Sequence record: NC_105513.1
Length of the DNA: 51,277 bases
Reading direction: 5' to 3' (one strand)
Source: a phage
Below are positions 1 through 45,500 of the stretch, piece after piece. Below the pieces are notes generated by a model. That model did no database searches and had not been told where the DNA came from. It saw nothing but the letters and a program-made list of their open reading frames with translations. Numbering within the stretch: position 1 is the first letter of the stretch; each line of letters begins with the position of its first letter. Both the position numbers and the translations under genes were made by a program.

Positions 1-31
1 CTTTTATTTCTCCTTTCGTTTCGGTGAAGTG

Positions 32-76
32 ATTATGCCAGGCTTTTACACCTGGCTTTTAACAAAAAGTGCTATT
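32..76 (-). promoter_or_regulatory. box-type promoter (box 57..76, -10 CATAAT 32..37)
   Basis: rc reads AATAGCACTTTTTGTTAAAA-N22-CATAAT; serves gene 50891..51277 across the junction. Confidence 0.6.
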
Positions 77-782
77 TTGCGTTTGCTTCGAAGACTGCGC
101 GAGCAAAACCGCGCGGAGTGAGGGAGCGGATCATCTTTGTGCGAGATGATTTTCCGCCAGTTTTGGCCCAGCCTGGATTATCTTTGTCATTCTCTTTCGG
201 CAGGATTAAAGCGCGCTGAGGAATAACAAATCCGTTTCCAGTCCAAAGGCATGTTTTCTTAAAGTAGCGATCCCGCGCCGGAATAATATCAGGAAAGTCG
301 GGATGTTTATCATCTTCCGGAAGATAGCCAGCATAATCGCACGGATGGAACGTATAATCAGGCTTGCGCCATAACGTTGACAGCTTGCCTACAGGATTCT
401 CTATCATGTACGGAACGCCGAAATAATCAGCAATTTGCGCCGCTATTTTGCAAGTGTCGGCGGCCTCATCCTGGAAAGAGGGATTCTCAAGGCGTTTTTT
501 GGACCAATGGCGAGATCCGCTATTTGCAAGGTCAGTGCACGGCGGAAATGCCATAATGAAATCAGGCTTGCCCCAATTTTCAAGTTTTGCGGTATATTTG
601 AATAGCTCATCAATCCACACATTAACGTAAAAAATATTATCATGGATTATGCGCACTGATTGGTAATCTCCATGATCTGCATCATCGTAATTAAAGCAAA
701 TGCATTTATATCCAGCATCAGCCCAATCTTTAACGGCTTTACCAGATCCATCAAACAAAGAGAATATTAAACCTTTATACAT
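72..782 (-). CDS. DNA (cytosine-5)-methyltransferase-like protein
   Basis: 236 aa; ordered motifs FSLFDGSG (FxGxG AdoMet site), FPPC (PC catalytic Cys), IENPVG (ENV); RBS GAGGTG upstream; stop TAG embedded in promoter box. Confidence 0.55.
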   Translation of the reverse strand: MYKGLIFSLFDGSGKAVKDWADAGYKCICFNYDDADHGDYQSVRIIHDNIFYVNVWIDELFKYTAKLENWGKPDFIMAFPPCTDLANSGSRHWSKKRLENPSFQDEAADTCKIAAQIADYFGVPYMIENPVGKLSTLWRKPDYTFHPCDYAGYLPEDDKHPDFPDIIPARDRYFKKTCLWTGNGFVIPQRALILPKENDKDNPGWAKTGGKSSRTKMIRSLTPRGFARAVFEANAK

Positions 783-791
783 TTCATCACC

Positions 792-1016
792 TCAAAACGG
801 AAAGCATCTAGGGCAGTTCGGATCAAAATTGCAACCACAATCATTAACAATCATGGTTGGATCTGCAAATGCAGCGCCGCATTCATGGTCCATATCCATT
901 TCACCCAACGCATCATCAAGCGTCCTGATTTTATATGCGACCTCAAGCGCGGCCTCTTTATTCAGTCCGGCATCTTCTGCTTTTTGCAGTCGCTCAAAAA
1001 AACCGTCTTGACTCAT
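792..1016 (-). CDS. hypothetical cysteine-rich small protein
   Basis: 74 aa ORF, RBS AAGGAG; C-terminal CGCNFDPNCPRC cluster. Confidence 0.5.
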   Translation of the reverse strand: MSQDGFFERLQKAEDAGLNKEAALEVAYKIRTLDDALGEMDMDHECGAAFADPTMIVNDCGCNFDPNCPRCFPF

Positions 1017-1126
1017 TTAATAAACTCCTTAACAACAGCAAGAATAATCACAAGCCCAGCAGTAAAAACAAGCAAACCGACAAGGCCAATCATAACACCA
1101 AATAAAATATCAAGCGCCTTAATCAT
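1013..1126 (-). CDS. putative small hydrophobic peptide (37 aa)
   Basis: MIKALDILFGVMIGLVGLLVFTAGLVIILAVVKEFIK read from reverse complement; single predicted TM helix; stop overlaps next ATG; below ORF-track length cutoff. Confidence 0.3.
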   Translation of the reverse strand: MIKALDILFGVMIGLVGLLVFTAGLVIILAVVKEFIK

Positions 1127-1137
1127 TTATTCACCAT

Positions 1138-1166
1138 TGATAAAATGGGAGGCGGCAACCTCCCAT
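1138..1166 (-). terminator. rho-independent terminator
   Basis: 8-bp stem ATGGGAGG/CCTCCCAT, 6-nt loop, U-run on minus strand. Confidence 0.45.
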
Positions 1167-1173
1167 TGATTAA

Positions 1174-1434
1174 TCATACAGCCTTCCAGCTTTCAATAAA
1201 CATGCTGTTTTCTTCCAGAAGTTTAATCAATTCTTCGCGCGTATATTTGCGGATTTTACTACCTGGATGTGAGCCAACAACAAACACACCTTTACCACTT
1301 GTGATGGTTAACTGGTTAATTCCGCAAGATTTATCCATTTTCACGGCGACGCGGTGATGTGCATCAACAGTGTGCATGATGTTAGTGACTTTAGCTTTCA
1401 TTATGCGATCCTCATTGTACTTAGTGTAGGACAT
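1174..1434 (-). CDS. hypothetical protein
   Basis: 86 aa ORF in early leftward block. Confidence 0.5.
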   Translation of the reverse strand: MSYTKYNEDRIMKAKVTNIMHTVDAHHRVAVKMDKSCGINQLTITSGKGVFVVGSHPGSKIRKYTREELIKLLEENSMFIESWKAV

Positions 1435-1439
1435 TATAT

Positions 1440-1673
1440 TTACTTCAAATTCTCGATCTTGTTATTGCCAATTGCAGAATGAACGCAACGCTCTTGCGTC
1501 TCCTTGTCGCCATGAACATCAATATAATAACCAGGTATGACAGTAAAAAACCAATTACCACGCCAGAAGAAATAAAGGCCATGCTTGCTTCCTTTCGCGC
1601 ATTTATTAGCATTTTTAGGTATTGGAAGTCCGTGTACTCTCCGCAATTCTACATTCTTGTTAAAATTTGGCAT
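1440..1673 (-). CDS. hypothetical protein
   Basis: 77 aa ORF, RBS GGAGG 7 nt upstream. Confidence 0.5.
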   Translation of the reverse strand: MPNFNKNVELRRVHGLPIPKNANKCAKGSKHGLYFFWRGNWFFTVIPGYYIDVHGDKETQERCVHSAIGNNKIENLK

Positions 1674-1867
1674 TACACAACCTCCATAAAAGTATTGAAT
1701 CCACGCAGTTTGAAAGCATTGCCATGCTTAACAACGTTCCATGTCAGGCCGGAGTGATACGCAACCATATCCTCAAGATCAATGGTGATGATAGCGCCTT
1801 TCTTAAAGATTCCTTTCTCGTGAGTGGTGTCACGCTGTACAACTTTAACGTCAACCTGTGTTTCCAT
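1673..1867 (-). CDS. hypothetical protein
   Basis: 64 aa ORF preceded by promoter box 1924..1943 and conserved leader GAGGATTTAAAAATG. Confidence 0.5.
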   Translation of the reverse strand: METQVDVKVVQRDTTHEKGIFKKGAIITIDLEDMVAYHSGLTWNVVKHGNAFKLRGFNTFMEVV

Positions 1868-1898
1868 TTTTAAATCCTCATTCGTTGTCGATGCGCAT

Positions 1899-1943
1899 AA
1901 TATACCAATCAGAGGCGCATCGTTTTTAACAAAAAGTGCTATT
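1899..1943 (-). promoter_or_regulatory. box-type promoter (box 1924..1943, -10 TATATT)
   Basis: box, 22-bp spacer, TATATT, then conserved leader CATCGACAACGAATGAGGA. Confidence 0.6.
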
Positions 1944-2218
1944 CAACAACAGATCCAGTTAAAGAGATAAGCTGCCTTGTGATCATACTGACGCGCAACA
2001 ACCGGAAGATTTTCACCGCTCTGATGACCGAAGCAGATCGGCAACTCACCCTCAAGAGAGCGGAAGCCGCCAAATTCAAGATCCCGCACTGGCTTTGAGC
2101 GCCACGCTTCAATAAATCCGCGTTCGTCACGCGTGATATAGTGGTATATGTTAGGGAGGGGCAATTGTACACCCTCAAAATCCACGGTATCGGTATAGCT
2201 GTAAAACTTAGAACTCAT
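1943..2218 (-). CDS. hypothetical protein
   Basis: 91 aa from Met MSSKFYSY; RBS GGAG; start overlaps stop of 2208..2360. Confidence 0.5.
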   Translation of the reverse strand: MSSKFYSYTDTVDFEGVQLPLPNIYHYITRDERGFIEAWRSKPVRDLEFGGFRSLEGELPICFGHQSGENLPVVARQYDHKAAYLFNWICC

Positions 2219-2360
2219 AGTCAACAACTCCAAATTCGTTAACGATTTGCGCCTTATAGAATCCGCCATTTTTCGCAAGGTTGTAGCAGGCCGCTACAGT
2301 TTCAAATTCTCGCACTTCCGGCTGGCTGTTTTCATGTTCCCAGGTAATCAGAGTAACCAT
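2208..2360 (-). CDS. hypothetical small protein (50 aa)
   Basis: MVTLITWEHENSQPEV... read from reverse complement; preceded by promoter box and conserved leader GAGGATTTGAAAATG. Confidence 0.45.
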   Translation of the reverse strand: MVTLITWEHENSQPEVREFETVAACYNLAKNGGFYKAQIVNEFGVVDYEF

Positions 2361-2393
2361 TTTCAAATCCTCGCATTCGTTGTCGATGTGTGT

Positions 2394-2438
2394 AATATAT
2401 CGGATTGCGAGGATTGAGTTTTAACAAAAAGTGCTATT
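2394..2438 (-). promoter_or_regulatory. box-type promoter (box 2419..2438, -10 TATATT)
   Basis: box, 22-bp spacer, TATATT, conserved leader. Confidence 0.6.
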
Positions 2439-2704
2439 TAGTCCAGGAATTCGATTTCGCGCTCGCCAGTTAACGGATCTTTAATCCAGAATCCGAGCGC
2501 CTCACCGTAAATACCGCCATAGAATCCAAGCGCCGACAGATCCTCACCTTTAACAAATACCAGATCCCCGCTACGGCTTACGTGAGATACGTTAACGATA
2601 ACCGGAAAGGTGCGATCCTTAAATGCAGGCCGCAGGGCGTAACATCCGTTATTGAGCAAACGTGCTTTGCGCTTAACTGGAATAGGTGCATTGATTCGCG
2701 CCAT
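2438..2704 (-). CDS. hypothetical protein
   Basis: 88 aa ORF; stop abuts promoter box 2419..2438. Confidence 0.5.
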   Translation of the reverse strand: MARINAPIPVKRKARLLNNGCYALRPAFKDRTFPVIVNVSHVSRSGDLVFVKGEDLSALGFYGGIYGEALGFWIKDPLTGEREIEFLD

Positions 2705-2717
2705 CTTTATTTCTCCT

Positions 2718-2963
2718 TCATTGTTGATCGTGTTTAACGGCCATCAGAACATCACAGGACTCGTTAATGAATTTAGCCATGCGTTTATCATCACCAACAG
2801 GTATTAGCGCGTTAAACTCGCGTTTGCTACTGAATACCGTCACTTTATGAAACGATGCGAACGGCATCGACGGGAACTCGACTGTTTGCGTCAAGATTCG
2901 CAATCCCATCTTTTTGGCCCTTATCTGGGCCTCAGCGAGTTCAAAATCCACTTCACTAATCAT
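2718..2963 (-). CDS. hypothetical protein
   Basis: 81 aa ORF, overlaps start of downstream gene by 4 nt. Confidence 0.5.
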   Translation of the reverse strand: MISEVDFELAEAQIRAKKMGLRILTQTVEFPSMPFASFHKVTVFSSKREFNALIPVGDDKRMAKFINESCDVLMAVKHDQQ

Positions 2964-3232
2964 TTCTTGATCTCCTCAGCAATAAACTTCAGGACTTTGC
3001 GCAAAAACACTTCATTATTGATGGTCGCTGGCAATTCTTCTTTTACTTCTTGCGGCAGGTAAACGTTGCCATGCCAGGTTAAGCAATCGTAGTTGATACG
3101 ATAAGAGCAAAGCCACTCGCAATCGTTATCCGCTTCCCAAATGCAGAGTTGCAGAACATCACCGAAATCCTCAACAGTCAGATCCAGACCGTGACGCTTT
3201 GCAAAGTTGAAAGTGGTTTTGCTGATGTTCAT
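2960..3232 (-). CDS. hypothetical protein
   Basis: 90 aa ORF, RBS AGGAG; first gene after promoter box 3296..3315. Confidence 0.55.
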   Translation of the reverse strand: MNISKTTFNFAKRHGLDLTVEDFGDVLQLCIWEADNDCEWLCSYRINYDCLTWHGNVYLPQEVKEELPATINNEVFLRKVLKFIAEEIKK

Positions 3233-3270
3233 TTGCTTTCTCCTGATGGGTATCTCGTTTCGATGTGTGC

Positions 3271-3315
3271 ATTATGCCGAATCCAGTCAGGCACGTTTTA
3301 ACAAAAAGTGCTATT
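3271..3315 (-). promoter_or_regulatory. box-type promoter (box 3296..3315, -10 CATAAT)
   Basis: box, 22-bp spacer, CATAAT, leader CACATCGAAACGAGA; first promoter of leftward early block. Confidence 0.6.
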
Positions 3316-3539
3316 TGCTTACTGGTCATTATTCCATCTATTCCATTAATCAGGAATAACAGGAATAACTCATTCGCGATCACCTGGATTGGGAGACTTT
3401 GAGTTTGGTCAATTTTAATCAAGTGATTAACTTTTTGTGTGGAGGGGATAGAGAAACGCTGCCCTCTTGCATCCTTTCCGACAATCCTGGCGCGCGCATC
3501 TGTTATTTCTGTTCCCCATGTTATCTCAAATAAGCCTCC

Positions 3540-3868
3540 GCACTTTTAGATAACAGAATCGGCGTTCATCAACAAAAAGAACAAAATAAAATTTATATAT
3601 ATACCCATAAAATCAATAAGTTAGTTATATATGTATTTATATTTGTTATTTACTGTTGAGCTTGTTCTATGGGTATATGGTGGAGTGGTATTGTTTGTGG
3701 TGATATGTATGTGTGATTGTATATTTTTTAATCAATGGTGATATGTGGTGATTTTTGTATGTATATATATAGGTATGGAGCAATCCTCCGTCAACCAAGT
3801 CAACAAGGTCATTTTTAAAAGAAAAACCAATGACTTAACTGAAGCATTTTGTTATCTTTAAACGCGCC
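3540..3868. repeat. AT/GT-rich non-coding region A, homologous to region B
   Basis: ORF-free; shares exact 16-mer AAATCAATAAGTTAGT (3610..3625) and about 55 bp of flanking similarity with 32755..32812; GGTGAT iteron-like repeats. Confidence 0.6.
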
Positions 3869-3904
3869 ACATGCCAAAAATTGTTATTAAAACACAAAAA
3901 TACA

Positions 3905-3933
3905 TTGACACGTATGAAAGGCAAGGCAATAAT
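3905..3933 (+). promoter_or_regulatory. sigma70-like promoter TTGACA-17-AATAAT
   Basis: canonical spacing, about 35 nt upstream of ATG 3970. Confidence 0.5.
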
Positions 3934-3969
3934 GCATCCAGTTTAAACGCAACAAAAGGAGTAGACGCC

Positions 3970-4455
3970 ATGAGCGAAGAAAATATTAGCACCATGTCGC
4001 GTAGTGAGTTCTGCGATATGCTTCGCAGCCTGGGCGCGGCAATTGGTAGCGGTGAGCGTAATGATGTATTCATGCCAGCACTTTTTTTGTGCGCTAACGT
4101 GGAGAACGGCGAAGCAATTACGGCATCGTACATGCGCCAAGTGGTCAACCGTGTGCCAGAAGTAAAGCAAAAAGGCGTGATCAGCATTAAGCGAAAGGTG
4201 ACTGATGAGGGTGATGGCTTTGTGTTTACGCTCACTGAAGCCAAAAGCAAGCCTCGCGTTCTGACTGGTGAAGAAATCGACGAGATCGCAGAAAAGCGCG
4301 CAGAGAAGGCGGTAAGCAAAATTCTTAATCACCTGGTAAACGTAATGCCAAATATCACAGACCTGGAAGGCGACAAACTTGCTGGGGCGTGTGAGGCTAT
4401 CGGGCGCTACCAGGATATGATTCGTAAACTCGCTGGAGGAAAAGAGGATGAATAA
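3970..4455 (+). CDS. hypothetical protein
   Basis: 161 aa from MSEENIST; RBS AAGGAG; downstream of TTGACA-17-AATAAT promoter. Confidence 0.6.
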   Translation: MSEENISTMSRSEFCDMLRSLGAAIGSGERNDVFMPALFLCANVENGEAITASYMRQVVNRVPEVKQKGVISIKRKVTDEGDGFVFTLTEAKSKPRVLTGEEIDEIAEKRAEKAVSKILNHLVNVMPNITDLEGDKLAGACEAIGRYQDMIRKLAGGKEDE

Positions 4456-4708
4456 GGCATTAATTGGAGTTTTGATTGCAATCGCTACCCTTACCGGATG
4501 CGAAAAGGCATCTGAATCAACAGTTGTCGTAGGAGTGGAGTCAGATTTTAAAGTCGGTCGCCTGTTTACTGTTGATGGATGCACTGCGTACCGATTCTAT
4601 GACAACGGTCGAGCAATCTATTACACCAATTGTAAGGGCGCAACGGATAGCACATACCGCAGCGGCAAAAACGTAATGCACCAACAAGTCACAACAGATA
4701 TTAAATAG
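4448..4708 (+). CDS. putative lipoprotein
   Basis: 86 aa; N-terminal signal peptide with lipobox LTGC (MNKALIGVLIAIATLTGCEK). Confidence 0.6.
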   Translation: MNKALIGVLIAIATLTGCEKASESTVVVGVESDFKVGRLFTVDGCTAYRFYDNGRAIYYTNCKGATDSTYRSGKNVMHQQVTTDIK

Positions 4709-4748
4709 CACTTTTTGTTAAAACTCGAAAACGATAACCAGGCATAAT
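4704..4748 (+). promoter_or_regulatory. box-type promoter (-10 CATAAT 4743..4748)
   Basis: AATAGCACTTTTTGTTAAAAC, stop TAG 4706..4708 inside box; 22-bp spacer. Confidence 0.6.
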
Positions 4749-4803
4749 AAATCACATAGGGCGGCACGGCGTCGCACAGTTAAACCAATCAGGAGAAAGC
4801 ACC

Positions 4804-5697
4804 ATGTTAAAACTTGCTGACATTAAATTCCCGATCACCTTCGAATCTCGCGGCATTGGTCATTACATTTTTACCGATGAAAAAACATGCCATAAGGTTG
4901 ATATGAATAGCGACAAACTAACCCCATCAACAATGGAGATTGAACACTTTATTGATGCACACAATACGCACTACAACGCACTTAAAGACTATGGCTATGC
5001 AATGCCAGGCTACACATGTTTGCACTACAAGCCATATAAGGGCCAGGTGTTACCAGTGCGCTCACCGGAACGCGCAGAGATTCCGATGGTCAATATGAAA
5101 ACCTGCGACTACAAAAAGCTGTGGTGCTTAAGTCTGGACAATATCAAGTATCCGATCACGTTCCACACGACTGGTAAGTCAACGATTCGCTACACATCGC
5201 GCGACAATGGCGTTTATAGCGATGGTACGAAATCAGGGTTGAAAGTTGATTTCTTTGTCAATGGTCACAACAAGTTCAATCCGCACAATGAAAAGGATAA
5301 GGTGTACTACGTGGAAGATATTACAAAACACTTGTTTGGAGAAACACCATTCGGCGGCGGTAAGACGTCAATTCAACAAATCATTGGCGAGGAGATCCAC
5401 AAGGCAGCCGTTGAAATGAAAGCGCCTGGAGGATGGCGTATTGATAAGAGCGCAATTGTCTATCAAGAAATAGTAACGCAGGGCGCAATTGAAGACATGC
5501 CACTTGCCGCCACGCTAAAAGGCGTCCAAATTGCGGATGGCACATGGTTTGAATTAACGGCAAAACCAAAGACTATCGAGATTCATGATGATGTTGTTAT
5601 TCTTCTGCTTCATTACGGTAGCGCAAAAAACCGTACCGTTGCGGGTGAGATTAGCATCAAGCGCGGAACGATGGTTAAGTGGAATGTCAAAGTGTAA
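4804..5697 (+). CDS. hypothetical protein with internal tandem duplication
   Basis: 297 aa; two homologous segments (LADIKFPITFESRGIGHY... and LDNIKYPITFHTTGKSTI...). Confidence 0.65.
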   Translation: MLKLADIKFPITFESRGIGHYIFTDEKTCHKVDMNSDKLTPSTMEIEHFIDAHNTHYNALKDYGYAMPGYTCLHYKPYKGQVLPVRSPERAEIPMVNMKTCDYKKLWCLSLDNIKYPITFHTTGKSTIRYTSRDNGVYSDGTKSGLKVDFFVNGHNKFNPHNEKDKVYYVEDITKHLFGETPFGGGKTSIQQIIGEEIHKAAVEMKAPGGWRIDKSAIVYQEIVTQGAIEDMPLAATLKGVQIADGTWFELTAKPKTIEIHDDVVILLLHYGSAKNRTVAGEISIKRGTMVKWNVKV

Positions 5698-5740
5698 ATA
5701 GCACGAATTGTTAAAACTCAAATGTGGGGCCAGGTATAAT
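5697..5740 (+). promoter_or_regulatory. box-type promoter (-10 TATAAT 5735..5740)
   Basis: AATAGCACGAATTGTTAAAAC; 21-bp spacer. Confidence 0.6.
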
Positions 5741-5770
5741 GGCCTCACTTTCAACGAAGGAGATAAAACG

Positions 5771-6208
5771 ATGTACATTAGCAAGAAGATGAAATGCGTT
5801 TCCGTTAATTATGGTTGTGCTGGAATGTTCAAGCCTGGCGAAATCTATACGGCGCAAAAACTGAAATCATCAACCGGATCCTTTTACGTGAGCAATAGTA
5901 AAGGGCATCGCATGTTCCTGAACGGTGGCGAAGGCACTAAGGTTATGGCGCACGCTATGGTGATTGCTGAATTTGAGGAAGTGAAAGATGGAACAAATAA
6001 GCGCGTTAAGCACAAGTTTATTGATAATCATGGCGATGCACTTGAGGTATATAAGTTCGGCGATCGCGTGTTTATTGATGGCACATTTGAAGGTGGACGC
6101 AGGCCGGATTTTAGATCGATACTCACCATTGACCAGGTGCGCAAGCTGGCGGATAAGTTAAATGATCTGGCAGATGAAATCGAATACAAGCAAATTCATT
6201 TTAATTGA
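5771..6208 (+). CDS. hypothetical protein
   Basis: 145 aa from MYISKKMK; RBS AAGGAG. Confidence 0.55.
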   Translation: MYISKKMKCVSVNYGCAGMFKPGEIYTAQKLKSSTGSFYVSNSKGHRMFLNGGEGTKVMAHAMVIAEFEEVKDGTNKRVKHKFIDNHGDALEVYKFGDRVFIDGTFEGGRRPDFRSILTIDQVRKLADKLNDLADEIEYKQIHFN

Positions 6209-6219
6209 TAGGTTTGATA

Positions 6220-6759
6220 ATGAAAAAATACGAATTTGAACTTTGGGGCAGCAAATACCATTTTTCCACGAGCAAGCCGATTGTTATCGTTGACCTGGAC
6301 GGAACGTTATCAGACGGAACGCATCGCTTACACCTGCTTCCGACAGAAGATTTGCACCTTACAGAAAGCTGGTCTGAGTTCAATAAGGCGGCTGTTGGCG
6401 ATTCGCCGATTAAGAGCACGGTTGCAGTGGTTAACGGTTTGTGGATGTCAGGATTTGCCATCGTTATCCTGACCGGACGTAGCGATGAAGTGATGGAGGA
6501 CACCTGCAAATGGATTAACGAAAACGGCATCAAGTACGATGCGTTAATCATGCGCCGCAAGGAAGACAACCGCAAAGACACAATCATTAAAGAAGAAGTC
6601 TTGCGCGCTATCGGCCTAGAAAACATCGTGTGCGCTTTTGATGATTCGCCGAACGTGGTTAAGCACTTCCGCAGCCTGGGAATCACAACCTATCAGGTCA
6701 CGGAATACGACAAGCCACATAATCATATCCAATCGCATGGCGTGGAGGAATTGAAATGA
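6220..6759 (+). CDS. HAD-superfamily phosphatase-like protein
   Basis: 179 aa; DxDGT nucleophile motif (IVIVDLDGTLSDG), later ILTGR and FDDSP motifs typical of HAD hydrolases. Confidence 0.6.
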   Translation: MKKYEFELWGSKYHFSTSKPIVIVDLDGTLSDGTHRLHLLPTEDLHLTESWSEFNKAAVGDSPIKSTVAVVNGLWMSGFAIVILTGRSDEVMEDTCKWINENGIKYDALIMRRKEDNRKDTIIKEEVLRAIGLENIVCAFDDSPNVVKHFRSLGITTYQVTEYDKPHNHIQSHGVEELK

Positions 6760-6917
6760 TCTGGTTACTTTTAATCTTTGTCACAAGTTACAATTCCGCC
6801 GCTATTGAATCGCAAGAGTTCCACGGCGAATCAAGATGCCAGGAAGCACGAAAACAAGTTGTTCTCCACATGTCAGATAGTGGGAAAGATGTAACAGCGC
6901 TATGCGTTCGTAAATAG
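6756..6917 (+). CDS. small membrane protein (MIWLL family, 53 aa)
   Basis: ATG overlaps upstream stop; hydrophobic N-terminus MIWLLLIFVTSY; stop TAG embedded in promoter box. Confidence 0.45.
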   Translation: MIWLLLIFVTSYNSAAIESQEFHGESRCQEARKQVVLHMSDSGKDVTALCVRK

Positions 6918-6957
6918 CACTTTTTGCAAAAACACATTATCGGGCTTGCGGTATAGT
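6913..6957 (+). promoter_or_regulatory. box-type promoter (-10 TATAGT 6952..6957)
   Basis: AATAGCACTTTTTGCAAAAAC; 21-bp spacer; conserved leader CCCATCGACAACAAGCGAGGA. Confidence 0.55.
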
Positions 6958-6988
6958 AAGCCCATCGACAACAAGCGAGGATTAAATC

Positions 6989-7253
6989 ATGGTTAATAAA
7001 GTTGAGTTTTTCAAAGCGGTAGACAAGATTGACGGCGCGCCAAGTTTCTTTGCTATCCATTCCATTGACGGCGAAAGACGTTGCATACAACGTGATTAGT
7101 CGAGACGGTATATCAAAACTTAGTGACCTGGTGGGTTATATTGTGGCAAACGGGAAATGTGCATGGCCCGATTCGCCACGAGAGCCGCGCCGCCGCGACA
7201 TGCAAAATCCAGTCCTGCTTTACACGCTGGTAATTGAAGGAGTCAACAAATGA
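6989..7253 (+). pseudogene. frameshifted or two-part ORF (hypothetical protein)
   Basis: ATG at 6989 with conserved leader and RBS GAGGA reads 36 codons to TAG 7097..7099; the +1 frame stays open to 7253 with no ATG of its own. Confidence 0.3.
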
Positions 7254-7435
7254 TTTGGTTACTTGTATTTTTGGTGGTTTTCTTTTATATTTCAGGCTTA
7301 TTCATCTTCCGTGCGCTGGTGAAAACATGCGATTGCACGGATAAAGATCATCCTCTTGTTCTGATGTTCTGGTTTGTGTGGTTTTGGGTTGCGCTTTATC
7401 AGATTGTACGGGATAAAAGCGGATTCAAGTGGTGA
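7250..7435 (+). CDS. small membrane protein (MIWLL family, 61 aa)
   Basis: Starts MIWLLVFLVVFFYISGLFIF; two hydrophobic segments; paralog of 6756..6917. Confidence 0.5.
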   Translation: MIWLLVFLVVFFYISGLFIFRALVKTCDCTDKDHPLVLMFWFVWFWVALYQIVRDKSGFKW

Positions 7436-7629
7436 TTCTTACTATAGCGCATTCACGCAGTGCGCTATGTTGAGATAACAACATGAGATCATGAAGATGC
7501 GAAACTTCGAAAAAATCGTATCCAAAAAGAAGCGATACAGCTACCACGAGCACCAAGAGATGAATCAACGCTATCGCAATAAGCGCCAGCGCAAAGGTAA
7601 ACATTCCGGTAAACATGGAGAAAATCAAT

Positions 7630-8220
7630 ATGAAACGCGACATTATCATTCTTAACGGACCGCCAGGAGTTGGCAAAGATACGCTTGCGGCATACTTAAC
7701 GGGTCATCGTTACGCAGCGGTTAAAGCGTCATTTAAACAGCCTATGTTCGATATTGCATTCTCCATGCTTGGCGTTTACCGATATGACGAGTTCATTGAT
7801 CTGTATAACGACCGTGAGCAGAAAGAAAAGCCTCAAGCAATCTTGCAAGGTAAGTCTCCGCGACAATTCATGATCTGGATTAGCGAAGAAGTCATGAAGC
7901 CAGCTTTTGGCGAGCAATATTTTGGGAATCGCATGGTTGAGCAAGTACACGAGATGTACAGAGATTTAGCTGTTGTAATTAGTGATGGCGGATTCCCTGA
8001 AGAAATCAAGCCGCTCGTTAAGGCAGGCCATGAAGTTCACATTTGCCGACTGCATCGCGAAGGATTCACGTTTGATGGCGATTCACGAAACTATATTGAC
8101 CTGAGCGGATACCATCACCGAGTCAAGCATTACGACTTCACAATGATTGATGGCGAGCCAGAAAAGACTGTTGACGAGATCATCAAAGCGGTGCAGTGGA
8201 AACACACAAAGATTGAATAG
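7630..8220 (+). CDS. P-loop nucleotide kinase-like protein
   Basis: 196 aa; Walker A ILNGPPGVGKDT near N-terminus; RBS GGAG. Confidence 0.6.
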   Translation: MKRDIIILNGPPGVGKDTLAAYLTGHRYAAVKASFKQPMFDIAFSMLGVYRYDEFIDLYNDREQKEKPQAILQGKSPRQFMIWISEEVMKPAFGEQYFGNRMVEQVHEMYRDLAVVISDGGFPEEIKPLVKAGHEVHICRLHREGFTFDGDSRNYIDLSGYHHRVKHYDFTMIDGEPEKTVDEIIKAVQWKHTKIE

Positions 8221-8260
8221 CACGAATTGCTAAAAGCGGGGCGCAATGCCTCGCTATAAT
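8216..8260 (+). promoter_or_regulatory. box-type promoter (-10 TATAAT 8255..8260)
   Basis: AATAGCACGAATTGCTAAAAG; 22-bp spacer. Confidence 0.6.
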
Positions 8261-8290
8261 GCAAACACCAATCAACGAGAGGAAATCATC

Positions 8291-8692
8291 ATGGTAGAGT
8301 TAAACGACATTCGCGTTGGAACAAAATTTCGCGTAACCTGGGCAGATGAATATTGCGGCGTTAGCAAGGGCCAGGTTGTTACTGTGGATAGTATTTATCG
8401 CGGATGCAGCAAAGACTTTCGCCGCCCACGCATCAAGAATGGCTATATCATTACTCGCCGTTTTGGATTTGATCATTATTGCGTAGTGGCGACTCAAGGA
8501 GTTTTGATTGAGCTTAAGCGAATCAGCGATCATCGCGGCTGTCATGTTAAGACAATGAAGACACCATCTCAGCGATCGCGATACGATGCGCGCAGGATGC
8601 GCAGGCTTGCACGAAACGCGATCAAGTTCAAAAAGCCTGGTGGTAACTTTTACCGAATGTACAAAGGGATTGCGCGAAATGCTGGAAAATAA
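8291..8692 (+). CDS. hypothetical protein (basic C-terminus)
   Basis: 133 aa from MVELNDIRVG; RBS GAGAGGAA. Confidence 0.55.
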   Translation: MVELNDIRVGTKFRVTWADEYCGVSKGQVVTVDSIYRGCSKDFRRPRIKNGYIITRRFGFDHYCVVATQGVLIELKRISDHRGCHVKTMKTPSQRSRYDARRMRRLARNAIKFKKPGGNFYRMYKGIARNAGK

Positions 8693-8791
8693 CAACAACG
8701 CAACCAATCCAAAGCCGCCATTTGATTTTCATGAAATCATGATTGTGTTATTCTTGATTCTCTTAGTTATTTATTCAGTGAGGGCCGCACT

Positions 8792-9055
8792 ATGGTTTTT
8801 AACGCACTAAAACGAATCTTTAAACCTGAATACCGGATCGTTGCTTGCACAGAATGCAAGATTTATTACCTGCAACGCCGCCGCGTTATTAGTGGGGATT
8901 GGGAATATCTGACGGATGATGCTTTCGGATTTTGGGCTATGGAGTTCAATAGCTACAGCGAAGCGCGTGAATACGCTAAAAAGTTGCACAAGTTCAGACC
9001 TTACAAGCTGCGTTTGCTGGTTGTCAAAAAATGCGATGTGTTGGATCACGAATGA
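8792..9055 (+). CDS. hypothetical protein
   Basis: 87 aa, RBS GAGGG; CTEC motif. Confidence 0.5.
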   Translation: MVFNALKRIFKPEYRIVACTECKIYYLQRRRVISGDWEYLTDDAFGFWAMEFNSYSEAREYAKKLHKFRPYKLRLLVVKKCDVLDHE

Positions 9056-9231
9056 AAAGAGTAATTATCATTTTTATTACCATTATCGCTGGTTGCTACC
9101 TGGCTTATAATTATAGCGGCATTGTTGAGTCAATCGGCGGGTTGATTATCTTCATGGCTGGCGGGTATGCTGGCTATTGTGATGGATTCGAAAACGGAAA
9201 GCGTTACATGCTGACCGGAAAAAAGAAGTAA
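9052..9231 (+). CDS. small membrane protein
   Basis: 59 aa from MKRVIIIFITIIAGCYLAY; ATG overlaps upstream stop. Confidence 0.5.
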   Translation: MKRVIIIFITIIAGCYLAYNYSGIVESIGGLIIFMAGGYAGYCDGFENGKRYMLTGKKK

Positions 9232-9273
9232 TGTTAACCGCGCCGCTCCGGTGGCGCTAAAAGGAGGAAGCAA

Positions 9274-9561
9274 ATGGCTAAAAGCAATCGTAAAATGTTG
9301 ATTAACGCATTCGAAAAGGCAGCGCTTGAGCGTGGCTGGAATGACTCATTTCACACAGCAAACTGTATCCGCCGTTACGGATTCAAGAATTGCCGCTCCT
9401 GGGCGCGTCAAATGGCTTCATGGTATGATCTTGATGCGCATTACCTTGATATGGATTGCGCCCTTGTTGAAATGATTGAGCAGGCCGCATTAGAGGATCG
9501 ACCATTAACGCAATCTGATTTTGACGATTTTGTGCGCGATGAAATTTATTATATGAGCTAA
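9274..9561 (+). CDS. hypothetical protein
   Basis: 95 aa, RBS AAGGAGGAAG; stop followed by promoter box. Confidence 0.55.
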   Translation: MAKSNRKMLINAFEKAALERGWNDSFHTANCIRRYGFKNCRSWARQMASWYDLDAHYLDMDCALVEMIEQAALEDRPLTQSDFDDFVRDEIYYMS

Positions 9562-9604
9562 TAGCACTTTTTGTTAAAACTTCCGCGAGGGCATTTGTTA
9601 AAGT
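9560..9604 (+). promoter_or_regulatory. box-type promoter (weak -10 TAAAGT)
   Basis: AATAGCACTTTTTGTTAAAAC; 22-bp spacer to TAAAGT. Confidence 0.45.
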
Positions 9605-9636
9605 GTCCTCATTGAAGCGAAATAGAGGAAAGCGCA

Positions 9637-9855
9637 ATGAAAATCAAGATTATAGACGTGAACAATGCCATTAGTGGTGACGAACTTACACTTGAGGAGT
9701 GCGGGATTGAGGTTGGCGATGTGTTCGAAGTTACCGGACAATATCGCGATGGAACTTTGAGCATTCAAGCGCCACGAGATACCGATGATGGTTGCATCAA
9801 GGCTGGCGATGAATTGAGCGTTAACGAAGGTGAATATGAGGTTGTAGAAGAATGA
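9637..9855 (+). CDS. hypothetical acidic protein
   Basis: 72 aa, RBS GAGGAA. Confidence 0.55.
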   Translation: MKIKIIDVNNAISGDELTLEECGIEVGDVFEVTGQYRDGTLSIQAPRDTDDGCIKAGDELSVNEGEYEVVEE

Positions 9856-10115
9856 TCACGATTAACCTGTCAGAGCAGCAAGCGCGCATTATGTTAGCGG
9901 CCTTTGGTTGGCGAGATGATGACGGTATTCAGGCAACGGTTAAAATCCCTGATACGGTAGCGCGTGAAGTTTTTAACCAGCTTGAACACGCATTTGTTCC
10001 TGTTGGCACTGATCAGGCAGAAACAGCGGCTTGGTTCGGAGAGAACGGATACAGAGATCAGCAAGTCGAAAACTGGAAGCGCAAAAACGAGACTGCGGAG
10101 GAGGCCGGATTATGA
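9852..10115 (+). CDS. hypothetical protein
   Basis: 87 aa, start overlaps upstream stop. Confidence 0.55.
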   Translation: MITINLSEQQARIMLAAFGWRDDDGIQATVKIPDTVAREVFNQLEHAFVPVGTDQAETAAWFGENGYRDQQVENWKRKNETAEEAGL

Positions 10116-10426
10116 TTTACATTCACTACTACCAGATCGGGACAAACGAAAACAAGCAGGAGCGCAGAGCAATTTGTGACACGCTCGACGATGCGAAAGC
10201 ACAGCAACGCGTTTTGGGTGGTGTAATTCAGGCTTTTGAGCCAGTGGAAGATATAGAGCACCGAGAGCATTTGAAAGAGATTGTTGTTGATGAAATTTCA
10301 TCACTAATCGACGACATGACAAATCACGGGCCTGGTTCTCCGTGGGAAGAAGCCGGATCGACGGAGTGGGATTGTGCTAAAGTTGCAACGCTTAACGAAT
10401 TTCGTGAGTTGCTAGACGATTTTTAA
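10112..10426 (+). CDS. hypothetical protein
   Basis: 104 aa from MIYIHYYQ, RBS GGAGGAGG. Confidence 0.55.
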   Translation: MIYIHYYQIGTNENKQERRAICDTLDDAKAQQRVLGGVIQAFEPVEDIEHREHLKEIVVDEISSLIDDMTNHGPGSPWEEAGSTEWDCAKVATLNEFRELLDDF

Positions 10427-10624
10427 TTAAAATTGAATGCCTCATACAGCGAACAGGACGCATTTTGACGAGGTATTTTTTATGTAAGGTGATTCAATGG
10501 GTAGCTATATAAAACCGTCGCAATGGTGCGCACAGAAGCAAGAGGAAGCATTAGAGCGCGGCAACAATGAAACAGCAATGCACTATTTCGAAATGTACAA
10601 CTTGTGGAAGGGTAGAGGTCTGTA

Positions 10625-18035: not shown

Positions 18036-18054
18036 CACAAAATTATGTTGCACG

Positions 18055-18072
18055 TTTAACAAAAAATGCTAT
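18055..18072 (-). promoter_or_regulatory. orphan box copy, inverted relative to flanking genes
   Basis: TTTAACAAAAAATGCTAT about 50 bp upstream of major capsid ATG; no -10 at 21-22 bp on the minus strand. Confidence 0.4.
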
Positions 18073-18118
18073 CATTGTGGCGTTACATACTAACAGCCTT
18101 TATATATGGAGGAAGAAA

Positions 18119-21746: not shown

Positions 21747-21752
21747 TCACAA

Positions 21753-21774
21753 GGGGCGTTGCGCCCCTTTTTTT
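21753..21774 (+). terminator. rho-independent terminator after major tail gene
   Basis: GGGGCG-TTG-CGCCCC then TTTTTTT. Confidence 0.7.
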
Positions 21775-21807
21775 GTTACTGTACAATCATGCTACACGAT
21801 TCATAAT
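21773..21807 (+). promoter_or_regulatory. putative promoter TTGTTA-N23-CATAAT
   Basis: immediately after major-tail terminator, upstream of chaperone gene. Confidence 0.4.
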
Positions 21808-21813
21808 CAATTC

Positions 21814-21832
21814 TTTTAACAAAAAGTGCTAT
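21814..21832 (-). promoter_or_regulatory. orphan box copy, inverted, abutting RBS of chaperone gene
   Basis: TTTTAACAAAAAGTGCTAT directly before CAAGGAGAAAGAAATG. Confidence 0.4.
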
Positions 21833-21845
21833 CAAGGAGAAAGAA

Positions 21846-37714: not shown

Positions 37715-40111
37715 TTAACTCTCAAGAGTTGTTGGCTTGTTGATCAATGCAGAAACAGCCGCTTTTAACTCCTCTATTTCTTCTCTCATTGATTTCAAGT
37801 CTTCTTCTTGCTCCTTACATACCTGAAGTAAATATGCTGAAATTGCTGAGTAATCAACTTGTAAAAATTCAGCTTTACCTATTAACTCACTTCCGTCTTT
37901 CGTCGGCCCTTGAAGATAATCATAATCCTCAAAAGTGCTAACAGCTTCAGGAATAACTCCTTGAACTTCTTGTGCTATAACTCCAACATGACGAGATCCA
38001 TCTTTCTTAAGTGTGTATGAATACCCACACAGTTTACTAAGTCCATCCCTTGCATTCTTAAGTGGTTTTATATCTTCCTTAAGATTTACATCCGATCCCT
38101 GGTTGAAAGCGCTTGCGTTTACAGGTCCGTTAACCTGAAGATGCTTTGTGTTATTTGAGTTTAATTGCGCATAAAAAACCCACCCAGGGCCATTATCGAA
38201 ACCACACTCAATAACCGACAATCGATCTGACCCATTACCCCACAATTTGAAGGTTGCAGGGTGTGACGAGTTGCCGTCGTTCAGCATTTTGAAATACTTT
38301 CCGCTCGGACGGTCGATCTCTAAACTTGCGGCCTGGACGTATGCCTTGCCCGCAAAATTCTTTGTACCAAGCACAACGCCGTCTGTGATCAGATCAACCT
38401 TAGACGATGTAACATCGTTCAGGAATAGCGCGTTCGCCCCAGTGTCCTTCCCTAAAAACCAAAGACGCGTGCCTGCTGAGTTGTACCCTGTTACGTGCAG
38501 TGGTTGGTTGTTTGTTGACGTTGTTCCGTCGATCCGGAAGCCACCATTAGCGGTTGTAACTTTAATGCTGGGTACGGTCATAGCAAATGTGCCACTGGCT
38601 GCAAGGCCATTATAGGCAATCAGCTTGTTGTCATATGCAAGCTCACCATTGTCCCTTAATTGCAAGAATTTATTAGATGCCGAGTTGGAAACAGAAACAT
38701 CATTAGGCCAGGTGCGAAGAACTGCGCGCTTTTCGTCCCCTCTAGCCTCCACCGAAGAACCAGCGACCACCCCAGAAAAAGTCGGCGACGACCCCGCGTT
38801 ATACAGTTCGTACCACTGCGACCATGGGCCAGTCGTCGCGTTGCCTAGCCATCGAATCCAACGCCGCCCGTTGCCGTAGGCGGTGTACGTCTGTACGCAA
38901 CTCTTCGGATCGTTAGCACCGGATCTTTGCACCAGTAAACAACCCGCCATGTTAATAGGATAGTTACGCTCTGGGGTGGCGTTAGCCGACATGGACTGAT
39001 AATAAAATCCAGCCTTATCACCCTGAAGGATGTTAAGGTCTTCGCTAACCAACGTTGCCCGTCGCTCATGCATGACCTGAAGGTTGGCGCGCGCTCCCTG
39101 GTCGTTCGATGCGCCTGTCCCGCCGTCCCCGATCGCCACGTCACCGTTAGCACCCAGCTTCGCCAGTTCAATGGCGCCAACACTTCCCGACGCACCGTTG
39201 ATCGCGTTGTTGTTCCCCGAGAAAACTTTAACGCGCGAGGTTTGCCAATCAACGTTGATTGCAAAGAATGTATCCCCCGCGCCTCCACATACGCCAGGTC
39301 CGTATCTGAAAGGGGTCATCTCACCCGATGGGAACTGCGAAATATCATCGACGCGCCAGAATCCTCCTTTGACCGTATCGCGCAACCGCTTGAGCATATC
39401 CCTTACGCCAGTCGGTGCCGGTAATGTTACGCCAGCATACGGCACTCTATTTTGAGCTTCTGAGCTTTCAGCAGCAGCCGCTGCGCGATCAGCCTCTGTT
39501 TTAGCCTTGTTCGCACTGTTTGCAGCATTAGTTTCAGATGTTTTGGCGTTTGTCTCAGAAGTCTTCGCGGCACTAGCCGAGTTAGCAGCATTAGTTTCCG
39601 ATGTTTTAGCCGCATTCTTACTTGCATTAGCTGCATTTTCAGATGCTTTGGCATTAGTTTCCGATGTTTTAGCGTTTGTCTCAGAAGTCTTCGCAGCGCT
39701 GGCGCTTTGTTTTGCTGATTCAGCGCCTTGCTTGACTTGATTTACAAGATCCTTCAATCCTTCAAGATCGAAATCTCTAAAAAATTCAAGTGCGTCAGCG
39801 ATCTCTGTTTCTTTGCTTTGATAGTAACGCAATGTTTCAGCTACATCTTGAGCAAGACCATCAACAGTTATTGAGTCATGAAGTAAGATCGCGTAATTTG
39901 AACGGGCAACTACCGCGCCACCAGTTGTAATTGCACGAATGCTTGTATCGTTAATAACTTCAGTTATCACGGCAATCTGCAACGGCTGAGTTAAAAATAC
40001 AATAGTTGCACCAGGGCGAATGAGCGTTAGTTGCTCTCGCCATTTTGTGTCGTATCCAGTGATATAACCTTGCGCGTCCATTGACGCTTGTCCTGTTCTG
40101 TAAATTGCCAT
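37715..40111 (-). CDS. L-shaped (side) tail fibre, T5 pb1-like, with C-terminal intramolecular chaperone domain
   Basis: 798 aa from MAIYRTGQ (RBS GGAGAAA); AAKTSETNA-type repeats as in T5 pb1; C-terminal segment resembling S74 self-cleaving chaperone domain. Confidence 0.8.
39480..39720 (-). repeat. in-frame tandem repeats (about 62-bp period) inside tail fibre gene
   Basis: GCATTAGTTTC(A/C)GATGTTTT(G/A)GC recurs at about 39527, 39589, 39651; encodes AAKTSETNA-type repeats. Confidence 0.7.
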
Positions 40112-41198: not shown

Positions 41199-41672
41199 TT
41201 AGCAATTAGTGCTTTCAGGTTTATACAGGAATCCTCCAGGCTCATAATCTGACATTCTTACCACTCGCAACATTTCGCGCTTATCACATCTCTTTGTGAG
41301 CGGTTTGCCATTGGAATCAAATCGCAGATCTGGACGACAGAATGATGCGCGATAGCCTTGACATCCATATTTTTTGTAATCGTTATGCACCTTTTGAGCG
41401 CCAGCGGCTGAAATCATACCGCGAACGCGCCACTGATTTACAGTTTGCTGGCTAACGTTAAGACGCTTTGCCATTGCTGACACGCTGCCGTAATACTCAA
41501 TAAGAATGTCAAGCCGTGCTTTTAGTCCGGCGCGCACTTCATCTTTTAAAACATAGTATCCTGTAGGGCGCTTGCGCTTTTTCTTATCTTTACCCCGTCG
41601 AGTTCCGTTATTGCCATTGATTGTGCGTTTGTCAATCTTACCAGTTGATACTGCGATTCGCTGTTCTTTCAT
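41199..41672 (-). CDS. putative DNA-binding protein
   Basis: 157 aa; basic N-terminus (KDKKKRKRP) and helix-turn-helix-like LNVSQQTVNQWRVRG. Confidence 0.45.
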   Translation of the reverse strand: MKEQRIAVSTGKIDKRTINGNNGTRRGKDKKKRKRPTGYYVLKDEVRAGLKARLDILIEYYGSVSAMAKRLNVSQQTVNQWRVRGMISAAGAQKVHNDYKKYGCQGYRASFCRPDLRFDSNGKPLTKRCDKREMLRVVRMSDYEPGGFLYKPESTNC

Positions 41673-44987: not shown

Positions 44988-45245
44988 ATGCAAAAAGAAA
45001 GAAGCATTTATTTAAATGAAACTGGAAAGTGGTTGTTATTTCGCGCTATGGTATGCGATGCACTTGATAAAAACCCTAACGTGAAAAAGATGATTGATTG
45101 CGATCCGTGGGAATTTTCAAGCGCATTAGACATGAGCTTTGAGGAGATCAAAAAACTCCCGCTTGAAAAATGGAACGAGCAAATCAGAAATGACATGCAA
45201 GAATTTGTCGATTCGTGGAATTTTCAGCACGGAATAATCCACTAA
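44988..45245 (+). CDS. hypothetical protein
   Basis: 85 aa from MQKERSIY, RBS GGAG. Confidence 0.5.
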   Translation: MQKERSIYLNETGKWLLFRAMVCDALDKNPNVKKMIDCDPWEFSSALDMSFEEIKKLPLEKWNEQIRNDMQEFVDSWNFQHGIIH

Positions 45246-45288
45246 TAGCACTTTTTGTTAAAACGCCCGACCTTGTGTCGGGCATAAT
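45244..45288 (+). promoter_or_regulatory. box-type promoter (-10 CATAAT 45283..45288)
   Basis: 22-bp spacer containing inverted repeat GCCCGA...TCGGGC. Confidence 0.6.
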
Positions 45289-45320
45289 TATTTCATCAAA
45301 ACGAACAAGAGGAAAACAAA

Positions 45321-45500
45321 ATGGTTGTTTACGATCCACGCGCTTTTAAAATTGCTCAAGAAGTTTCACGCGAATCTGTTGCTGGCGGTTCGGTTAACGG
45401 CTATCAGTTTGATTGGTCGGCAGCAATGACCTTGCTTAAGGTTGCATATGGTCACGCGCCAATTGAAACAGCGGAGGCATATTATAAGCATGAAGGTTGA
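45321..45500 (+). CDS. hypothetical small protein (59 aa)
   Basis: MVVYDPRAFKIAQEV...; RBS AAGAGGAAAA; below ORF-track cutoff. Confidence 0.4.
   Translation: MVVYDPRAFKIAQEVSRESVAGGSVNGYQFDWSAAMTLLKVAYGHAPIETAEAYYKHEG

Follow-up and report, generated by a model that had tools for sequence, protein, structure and literature searches.

Closest described systems and genomic context

The repeated promoter cassettes of T1-like phages, and in particular the conserved start site and leader that follow their -10 element, were analysed in sequence record NC_105513.1, a phage genome of 51,277 nucleotides (nt) whose full length is hereafter called the window. The upstream part of these cassettes has been described before, as the 2024 re-annotation of phage TLS reported 18 intergenic copies of a 21-nt direct repeat, aaATAGCACnnnTTGnTAAAA, located ~76 nt upstream of start codons along the direction of transcription (PMC11447400). 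According to its authors, the repeat is also present in T1, Rtp, and Rogue1, just three sigma-70-like promoters were recognised in TLS, and the role of the repeat was left as a question (stoperator, enhancer site, or UP element), with no mention in the paper of a -10 element, a fixed 19-nt spacing, a G at -14, a hairpin, or a conserved start and leader (PMC11447400). The 20-nt box of the window has the same sequence, orientation, and ~76-nt distance to start codons as the TLS repeat; the TLS account covers this box, whereas the present finding concerns the part downstream of the -10. Literature searches for the box sequence, maps of transcription start sites (TSS), and Drexlerviridae transcriptomes returned the TLS paper as the sole relevant result, and the other T1-like genome papers that were accessible held nothing further on the box or the leader. 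In searchable literature, the box is already described and its downstream partner, the start and leader, is not.

The window makes up a complete T1-like genome (Drexlerviridae, Hanrivervirus) that closes into a circle, as evidenced by a minus-strand leader that starts at position 25 and reaches its ATG at 51275-51277. By megablast, its first 8 kb share 99.8% identity with Escherichia phage JLBYU09 and 92-94% with pSf-1, herni, and other Hanrivervirus members, identities that place the genome among the T1-like phages. For the family alignment, box sites were drawn from phage T1 and 120 IMG/VR stretches, giving 348 unique sites, 277 of them with a good -10, which were reduced to 171 clusters of <70% identity and aligned on the -10; divergence was assessed in 47 groups of orthologous cassettes. 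Cassettes are named by position (e.g., 2437, 1942, and 6914), and the finding reported here sits in cassette 2437 on the minus strand.

Another related system is found in T4-type phages, whose PeSLs (promoter-early stem-loops) unite promoter and terminator in one cassette and mediate modular shuffling (PMC2839356, PMC4122927). Like the box cassettes, PeSLs are short and repeated, combine a strong early promoter of the host type, A/T-rich in its upstream part, with a G/C stem-loop (often GGGG..CCCC), and flank small open reading frames (ORFs) lacking assigned function; both kinds are found at indel joints between related phages, the box cassettes at some of those compared. The repeated host-type early promoter with a stem-loop that marks PeSLs is thus also found in the box cassettes. 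However, PeSL promoters have a consensus -35 and the stem-loop as a separate neighbour, whereas in the more compact box cassette the 20-nt box replaces the -35, the stem-loop is nested in the spacer or around the -10, and the unit extends via the conserved start and leader to the Shine-Dalgarno sequence (SD). The consensus -35/-10 pair of PeSLs is absent from the box cassettes, which have no -35 hexamer and belong to another phage family, and whose sequence is probably unrelated to that of PeSLs. On this comparison, the box cassette is an analogue of the T4-type PeSL and not a member of that class.

Architecture of cassette 2437 and of the cassette family

Cassette 2437 begins with an exact match to the box AATAGCACTTTTTGTTAAAA (2419-2438, minus strand, about -51 to -32), the same 21-nt repeat as in TLS (PMC11447400), followed on the same strand by the -10 hexamer TATATT (2394-2399; A instead of G at -14 in this copy), the discriminator ACACA (2389-2393), and the start-site and initial transcribed element CATCGACAACGAA (2376-2388). 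With C-1 at 2388, transcription is predicted to start at the A at 2387, a placement derived from the position of the -10 and from the conservation of C-1 and A+1; in other cassettes, the predicted start falls on the A at 1892, 3264, 6964, and 48459, among others. The rest of the leader (2358-2375) comprises TGC, the SD GAGGA (2368-2372), the A/U spacer TTTGAAA, and the ATG (2358-2360) of an ORF encoding DUF7170 (2208-2360). This ATG lies 78 nt downstream of the start of the box, in agreement with the published definition of the repeat cassette.

The same layout was observed in 171 non-redundant T1-like promoters, which consist of the 20-nt box AATAGCACnnnTTGnTAAAA, a 19-nt spacer, an extended -10-like element (G-14, TATAAT), a 5-nt discriminator, a CAT start within CATCGA(C)AACGAA, an A/C-rich unstructured leader of ~26 nt, GAGGA, and ATG. 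The distance from box end to -10 was 19 nt in 213 of 277 sites. Across the 171 clusters, A-11 was conserved in 100% and T-7 in 99%, as in a sigma-70 promoter (TATATT at 2394-2399 included), and the start was conserved as C-1 in 72% and A+1 in 77%. The spacer, which is unrelated in sequence between copies, held ~0.05 bit per position, compared with 0.3-0.9 bit at +1 to +12, where positions +2 to +12 follow the consensus TCGAAAC.AAA at 0.3-0.6 bit each. No mutual information was detected between leader and box columns. Listed singly, the leaders can be grouped into a small number of types that recur, each beginning 5 nt past the -10: the commonest is CATCGAAACGAA, and the others are CATCGACAACGAA (window 1942, 2437, and 6914; T1 2269 and 6531), CATCAACCAATCAG.., CA(C/T)ACCAA.., and (C/T)ATTGAAGCGAA. 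The same types recur across genera and before different genes, and in five other lineages the DUF7170 gene orthologues are preceded by differing members of this set.

The leader, measured from the predicted start to the start codon, had a median length of 26 nt (interquartile range, 25-29), and its composition ahead of the SD was 48% A, 25% C, 14% T, and 13% G. RNA structure prediction gave no sign of a structured leader, since no conserved fold was found within the transcribed leaders and positions +1 to +54 folded more weakly than their dinucleotide shuffles (-3.6 vs -4.7 kcal/mol, p = 6e-15). The leaders of the window ranged from -1.6 to -4.6 kcal/mol with z-scores of -0.2 to +1.7, and Rfam covariance models at the gathering score returned 0 matches over the entire window.

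A simple -35/-10 consensus scan does not detect the box promoters, indicating an extended -10-like promoter whose -35 region is filled by a sequence-specific box; the scan failure, also met by the TLS authors, fits a design of extended -10 plus upstream element. The promoters resemble the Escherichia coli sigma-70 extended -10 (TGn) class in their near-consensus -10, the lack of a usable -35 (TAAAAC), and a T-tract/A-tract block upstream as in UP elements. The TG at -15/-14 is present in part, with G-14 at 84% but T-15 at 44% in the family, and the 2437 copy reads CGA before TATATT, with no TG. Compared with UP elements, the box is far more sequence-specific (ATAGCAC..TTG.TAAAA) and lies at -51 to -32, overlapping the -35 position; the alpha C-terminal domain, sigma region 4, or another factor are candidates for its reader. 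The start predicted for the host holoenzyme, 6-8 nt past the -10, is supported by the conservation of A+1 and C-1. The box was also considered as a canonical -35 and rejected, because 22-23 nt would separate TTGnTA from the -10 and the -35 position is occupied by the hexamer TAAAAC. Look-alikes of sigma-32, sigma-28, MotA-box, rrn boxA, and IHF sites, compared by eye, fit single copies or had the wrong spacing.

Leader similarity within the window

The first-pass annotation of the window had described a near-identical transcribed leader behind a subset of box promoters, ahead of unrelated ORFs, and all of the leader strings that it quoted were found at their places on the transcribed strand. 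The box AATAGCACTTTTTGTTAAAA occurred 16 times at <=3 mismatches vs 0.02 expected, and a looser pattern allowing a variable triplet recovered ~20 good promoters, including a GAA-type box at 8216. In 102 kb of both strands, CATCGAMAACGA was found just three times at 0-1 mismatch (1882, 2377, and 6963), each time exactly 5 nt past the -10 of a box promoter. Moreover, a weight matrix for -1 to +13, trained on box promoters of other phages alone and without selecting on the leader, placed 8 window promoters within the top 17 of ~102,000 positions. Local alignment of the 32 nt before the start codon gave a mean score of 7.8 for 17 promoter-proximal genes vs 6.1 for a control set of 58 other SD-bearing genes (p = 3e-13), and the mean of 11.9 for the six leaders claimed as strong was attained by 0.8% of control pairs. 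By motif count, weight matrix, and alignment scores, the similarity thus exceeds that of AT-rich ribosome-binding site (RBS) regions. The ORFs behind the strong leaders are indeed unrelated, encoding PF25180 (Gp54 trigger family), DUF7170, and phrog_10679.

Other parts of that description had to be corrected. Instead of marking a discrete subset, the leader similarity forms a continuum over the family and is not special to this phage. The leader had also been taken as one motif running to the start codon: CATCGA(C)AACGAA is kept across genera, but the other half, GAGGATTTnAAAATG / GAGGATTTWAAAATG, is not significantly enriched by itself (10 matches vs 5.6 expected), and GAGGATTT..AAAATG is an ordinary strong RBS. 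A mini-ORF (ATG AGG ATT TAA) in the 1942 leader was rejected as a feature, as it is not conserved and the base before GAGGA varies (T, C, A).

Constraint on the conserved start and leader

The conserved 12-13 nt are in register with the -10 and not with the start codon. When leaders of at least 29 nt were aligned on the start site, the consensus CATTGAAACGAAAC was kept (6.2 bits), whereas their alignment on the SD retained the A/C-rich composition only. Among orthologous cassettes, divergence was 0.036 in the box, 0.045 at -14 to -7, 0.054 at -1 to +2, and 0.076 at +3 to +12, compared with 0.136 in the discriminator, 0.155 in the SD zone, 0.163 in the spacer, and 0.267 in the coding sequence. 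The divergence of the leader start is close to that of the -10 and below that of the SD zone, suggesting that the leader start evolves like a core promoter element; set against the spacer and the coding sequence, the same value bears out the earlier proposal that the conservation is non-coding and selected, not at the protein level. In addition, the motif was not found upstream of internal genes in the window.

A similar start is found in promoters of phage T7. In the T7 record, A1 starts at 498 and A3 at 750, and gene 0.3 begins at 925, the mapped starts thus lying 175-430 nt before the first gene. The A1 start reads CAGCC-ATCGAGAGGG (transcript ATCGAGAGG, context CC-ATCGAGAGG) and the A3 start ACCAC-ATGAAACGACAG (transcript ATGAAACGACAG, context CAC-ATGAAACGACAG). 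The two share with the box promoters a CAT start context and the resemblance of ATCGAGAGG and ATGAAACGACAG to ATCGAAACGAA / ATCGACAACGA here; they differ in having -35 hexamers and long leaders, and the likeness spans 6-11 nt, with no ancestry implied. As far as the sequences tell, A1 and A3, which are among the best-known strong promoters of the E. coli polymerase, have a similar start without a nearby RBS. In T5 and T7 promoters, the first ~20 transcribed bases set promoter strength at late steps of initiation, and T5 promoters with a conserved downstream transcribed region were reportedly described by Kammerer et al. in 1986.

We favour, with moderate confidence, the reading that T1-like phages use a standard expression cassette whose downstream half, the conserved segment, is constrained mainly by initiation and promoter escape plus accessibility of the RBS. 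In such a cassette, the 20-nt box would stand in for the -35 ahead of the free 19-nt spacer, the extended -10-like element, the 5-nt discriminator, and the start CAT, after which the initial transcribed ATCGA(C)AACGAA, the A/C-rich unstructured leader (~26 nt in all), the GAGGA SD, and the A/U-rich spacer would lead to the ATG. The first 12-13 nt would be kept mainly as a promoter part that fixes the start site (pyrimidine at -1, A at +1) and presumably provides an initial transcribed sequence well suited to the host sigma-70 RNA polymerase, allowing a fast start and escape despite strong upstream contacts. The A/C-rich 5' end of the mRNA would be unable to pair with the SD, so that any ORF behind the cassette would be translated well. 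We infer a dual constraint, acting on the start and the initial transcribed sequence at the DNA level while, in the RNA, the A/C-rich bases of the same segment leave the SD accessible, and in our reading the DNA-level part is the stronger contributor to the conservation of the exact sequence. The near-identity of cassettes 1942, 2437, 6914, and 48509 may reflect paralogous cassette lineages that exchange by recombination, atop this functional constraint. The selection at the RNA level put forward in the first-pass annotation thus stands in part: the A/C-rich, unfolded composition of the leader makes it plausible, but the motif keeps its register with the -10, diverges in the manner of core promoter elements, and has no conserved fold, and a processing or regulator site was supported by none of the analyses made.

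Several points weigh against this reading. A close version of the motif is present in ~35-55% of box promoters, so a promoter can function without it. The antisense box promoters that are conserved but non-coding (window 21832 and T1 18850) start with TACAG.., and the lack of the motif in antisense promoters without an ORF is what an mRNA-specific, RNA-level role predicts. The register test has limited power because leader length is nearly constant. We know of no general escape sequence rule that singles out ATCGAAACGAA, and the likeness to T7 A1 and A3 concerns two promoters chosen beforehand. Furthermore, the indels relative to JLBYU09 (99.8% identical) are not all at cassettes, and no TSS map or transcriptome of any Drexlerviridae phage was found in searchable literature.

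A purely RNA-level role, with the A/C-rich 5' end acting as a translational enhancer or ribosome standby site that opens the RBS or binds S1 while initiation is indifferent to it, appears unlikely to us, although it has a share of the evidence on its side. A/C-rich or A/U-rich enhancer leaders (CAA-rich omega-type, S1-binding) are defined by composition, and the box leaders resemble them in being 48% A and 25% C and less folded than shuffles, with no folding around the SD. Leader length, and hence the distance from the 5' end to the SD, is tightly kept at 25-29 nt, the box promoters that drive no ORF are without the motif, and the long-leader cassettes have a second, SD-anchored module, ACCAATCAGGAG. 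What such a role leaves unexplained is that the box cassettes keep, beyond composition, a specific sequence locked to the -10, which evolves more slowly between orthologues than the SD zone and is absent before internal genes, although these need translation too; in addition, the near-identical starts of T7 A1 and A3 have leaders of 175-430 nt.

The position-specific conservation of 12 nt overlapping the start site could also point to a site for a specific factor, either a +1 to +12 operator for a phage regulator or an mRNA 5' tag that is bound or cut, timing the early genes. The phage encodes a helix-turn-helix regulator (Cro-like, 41199-41672; phrog_2856, E = 3e-78), and most occurrences of the motif lie in the early arms. 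We nevertheless consider such a site improbable, given that several leader types coexist (CATCGAAACGAA, CATCAACCAATCAG, CACACCAAAC, and TATTGAAGC), which is a poor fit to a single binding site, that no dyad or 10-11-nt repeat symmetry, conserved RNA fold, or Rfam match was detected, and that the literature searched gave no experimental lead. Just as improbable is the broader proposal that the ATCGA(C)AACGAA 5' end is an identity tag of phage early mRNAs, or a +1 to +12 operator, read by a dedicated phage or host factor. Were it true, this factor might selectively translate or protect phage messages in host shut-off, or switch off the early regulon together, and the box and leader would form a new T1-like system of transcription and translation control and not an optimised sigma-70 promoter. 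Very improbable, finally, is shared descent alone, that is, a recent duplication or gene conversion of cassettes in which the leader hitch-hiked with no function of its own. Lineages do co-inherit loop, -10 flank, and leader type, and mosaic joints and a hybrid cassette occur in phage BEK1-23 (see below), but copies with identical box and leader have wholly unrelated spacers, so that they are not recent simple duplicates and selection is needed to account for them. The motif is also kept between genera despite diverged neighbouring ORFs, and the divergence of the leader start between orthologues is half of that of the spacer.

T1-like phages often contaminate laboratories and are candidates for phage therapy. 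Reading the repeat and the leader together yields ~20 testable promoters per genome in phages of essentially unmapped transcription, each with a predicted start, a standard leader plus RBS, a defined upstream element replacing the -35, and a nested hairpin of the read-through RNA. The outcome would be a transcription map of the early region and a set of natural initial-transcribed-sequence variants for the study of promoter escape, and the cassettes could be used in engineering as compact, insulated expression cassettes.

Cassettes at some joints of gene gain and loss

Comparison of the 2200-2520 region with related phages revealed matches bounded by the cassette. Those in Klebsiella Webervirus phages start exactly at the box (query position 82/83), and those in BEK1-23, swan01, and others stop at the ATG (query position 164). 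BEK1-23 and swan01 are without the window genes at 1943-2360, their upstream gene being fused to a cassette that has the 1942-type spacer; the BEK1-23 version of this cassette is a hybrid whose SD segment is of the 2437 type. JLBYU09 is without three window segments, namely 1612-2157, which includes promoter 1942 and neighbouring ORFs and lies inside ORFs, 4455-4717, and 37946-39529, which covers ~1.6 kb of the tail-fibre region. The outcome was mixed, as only one of the gaps that were compared with the cassette map ends inside a box (4718). The evidence for cassette-mediated shuffling is thus suggestive, not systematic, and some cassettes sit at joints of gene gain and loss, much like the PeSLs of T4. 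Recombination at shared cassettes is offered as a mechanism for swapping small accessory genes, including one of a defence-trigger family.

Hairpins nested in the promoters

Besides the conserved elements, box promoters carry an inverted repeat of variable sequence, located around the -10 or in the spacer just 5' of it (e.g., 6933-6966, 9580-9613, and 45264-45297; T1 2290-2325). The fold of -31 to +4 was -10.3 kcal/mol vs -4.6 kcal/mol for shuffles with the -10 held in place (p = 2e-25). The hairpin takes one of two forms, in which either the upstream spacer and the discriminator serve as arms with the -10 in the loop, or the -10 directly follows a G/C stem capped by a tetraloop. Among the 14 sequences of one cassette lineage, 99% of positions were paired, with compensatory changes in 5 of 7 pairs, compared with only 34-52% when the structures were slid by 1-3 columns. 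Across 116 stems, the non-Watson-Crick positions comprised 48 G:T vs 3 A:C (p = 2e-11), indicating that the folding strand is the sense strand, i.e., RNA reading through from upstream, and excluding the hairpins as terminators of the antisense strand. At least 5 T in the 8-nt tail were found in 23% of the spacer-type stems and in none of the -10-enclosing stems. A terminator pattern scan does not call these hairpins, several of which are annotated as terminators in the T1 record; a more fitting label would be attenuator or 3'-end hairpins that lie within the promoter downstream.

Promoter 2437 is without the usual local hairpin (-0.1 kcal/mol). Its spacer contains AATCCTCGCA (2406-2415, minus strand), which is complementary to the SD-containing TGCGAGGATT (2366-2375) and would occur in read-through transcripts only; the duplex of the two, at -18.8 kcal/mol, is an outlier among the 171 promoters. 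RNA from the predicted 2437 start is essentially unfolded with the SD free (-3.2 kcal/mol, z = +1.7), and in read-through RNA the SD is paired (-19.8 kcal/mol, z = -2.3). Phage pSf-1 retains 9 of the 10 pairs, one being G:T. According to these models, masking of the SD by the spacer would tie translation of the ORF at 2208-2360 to its own promoter. As a general device, spacer-SD pairing was rejected, given that native duplexes averaged -6.8 kcal/mol vs -6.6 kcal/mol for permuted ones; it holds at a few loci, including 2437. Pairing of the box RNA (UUUUUGUU) with the leader AACGAA, an idea that arose from the fold of the 1943 read-through RNA, was rejected as well (native -4.83, permuted -4.71, and shuffled -4.91 kcal/mol), and leaders with GCAA showed a weak association with box position -37.

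Other cassettes of the window and minor features

Cassette 1942 (1865-1943, minus strand) has its box at 1924-1943, its -10 at 1899-1904, the leader CATCGACAACGAATGAGGATTTAAAAATG, and an ATG at 1867, with a stem GATGCGC/GCGCATC that surrounds the -10. The leader, among the strongest of all, precedes an ORF (1673-1867, minus strand, 64 aa) with a match to PF25180, "Phage antiviral trigger protein Gp54" (E = 1.5e-37), and for a Gp54-type gene, which is of an accessory kind, gain and loss are to be expected. On the same strand, cassette 3314 (3230-3315) combines a box at 3296-3315 and a -10 at 3271-3276 with CATCGAAACGAGATACCCATCAGGAGAAAGCAAATG, and cassette 48509 (48430-48510) a box at 48491-48510 and a -10 at 48466-48471 with CATCGAAGCGAATATGAGGATTTTAAAAATG. 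Cassette 75 (1-76, minus strand; box 57-76, -10 32-37, CACCGAAACGAAAGGAGAAATAAAAG), whose ATG at 51275-51277 lies over the window junction, was the top match of the independent -1 to +13 weight matrix, and cassette 50676 (50603-50677, minus strand) has the short leader CATCAAAAAGGAGTTATCACCAATG. On the plus strand, cassette 6914 (6913-6991) has its box at 6913-6932, its -10 at 6952-6957 surrounded by the stem GGGCTT/AAGCCC, and CATCGACAACAAGCGAGGATTAAATCATG. Cassette 45245 (45244-45323) consists of the box, a stem GCCCGAC/GTCGGGC immediately 5' of CATAAT, and CATCAAAACGAACAAGAGGAAAACAAAATG, and cassette 9561 (9560-9639), a member of the lineage used in the covariation test, of the box, a stem GAGGGCA/TGTCCTC around TAAAGT, and CATTGAAGCGAAATAGAGGAAAGCGCAATG. 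GAA-type boxes were found in cassette 5698 (5697-5773), with the weaker leader CACTTTCAACGAAGGAGATAAAACGATG, and in cassette 8217 (8216-8293), with the box AATAGCACGAATTGCTAAAA and the leader CACCAATCAACGAGAGGAAATCATCATG.

Antisense box promoters were detected opposite late structural genes at 21747-21845 (minus strand; box 21814-21833, -10 21789-21794) and 18054-18073, and in T1 at 18850 and 15086. The first of these, promoter 21832, drives no ORF, has a start of its own, TACAG.AA, and is kept in T1 and one IMG/VR relative. It reads directly into a bidirectional terminator hairpin (GGGGCGCAACGCCCC) past the major tail gene, and an antisense RNA of ~30 nt is possible. In the late structural region (10,000-34,000, plus strand), no good sense-strand box promoter was found, and a degenerate box at 13798 overlaps a terminator. 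The late genes may be transcribed from promoters of another class or by polymerase that reads through many hairpins.

Between the divergent early arms lies a non-coding, very A/T-rich stretch of 640 nt (3320-3960) with the short direct repeats gtgatatgt and tatatat. It contains TTGACA-17-AATAAT (3905-3933), which lies upstream of an ORF starting at 3970 and is the sole sigma-70 promoter close to consensus in the scanned 1-10,500; the stretch could serve as an origin or in immediate-early control. Finally, the most over-represented 8-mer of the window, CCAATCAG/CTGATTGG, has 15 copies vs 5.7 expected from a Markov model and 1.5 from composition, located at 656, 1905, 4785, 10870, 12999, 16387, 20186, 26707, 31169, 34098, 37445, 42347, 44010, 46335, and 50785. 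In long leaders it adjoins the SD on the 5' side (ACCAATCAGGAG), the inverted form adjoins the -10 in the same way (CTGATTGG-TATATT), and further copies occur within genes on both strands.

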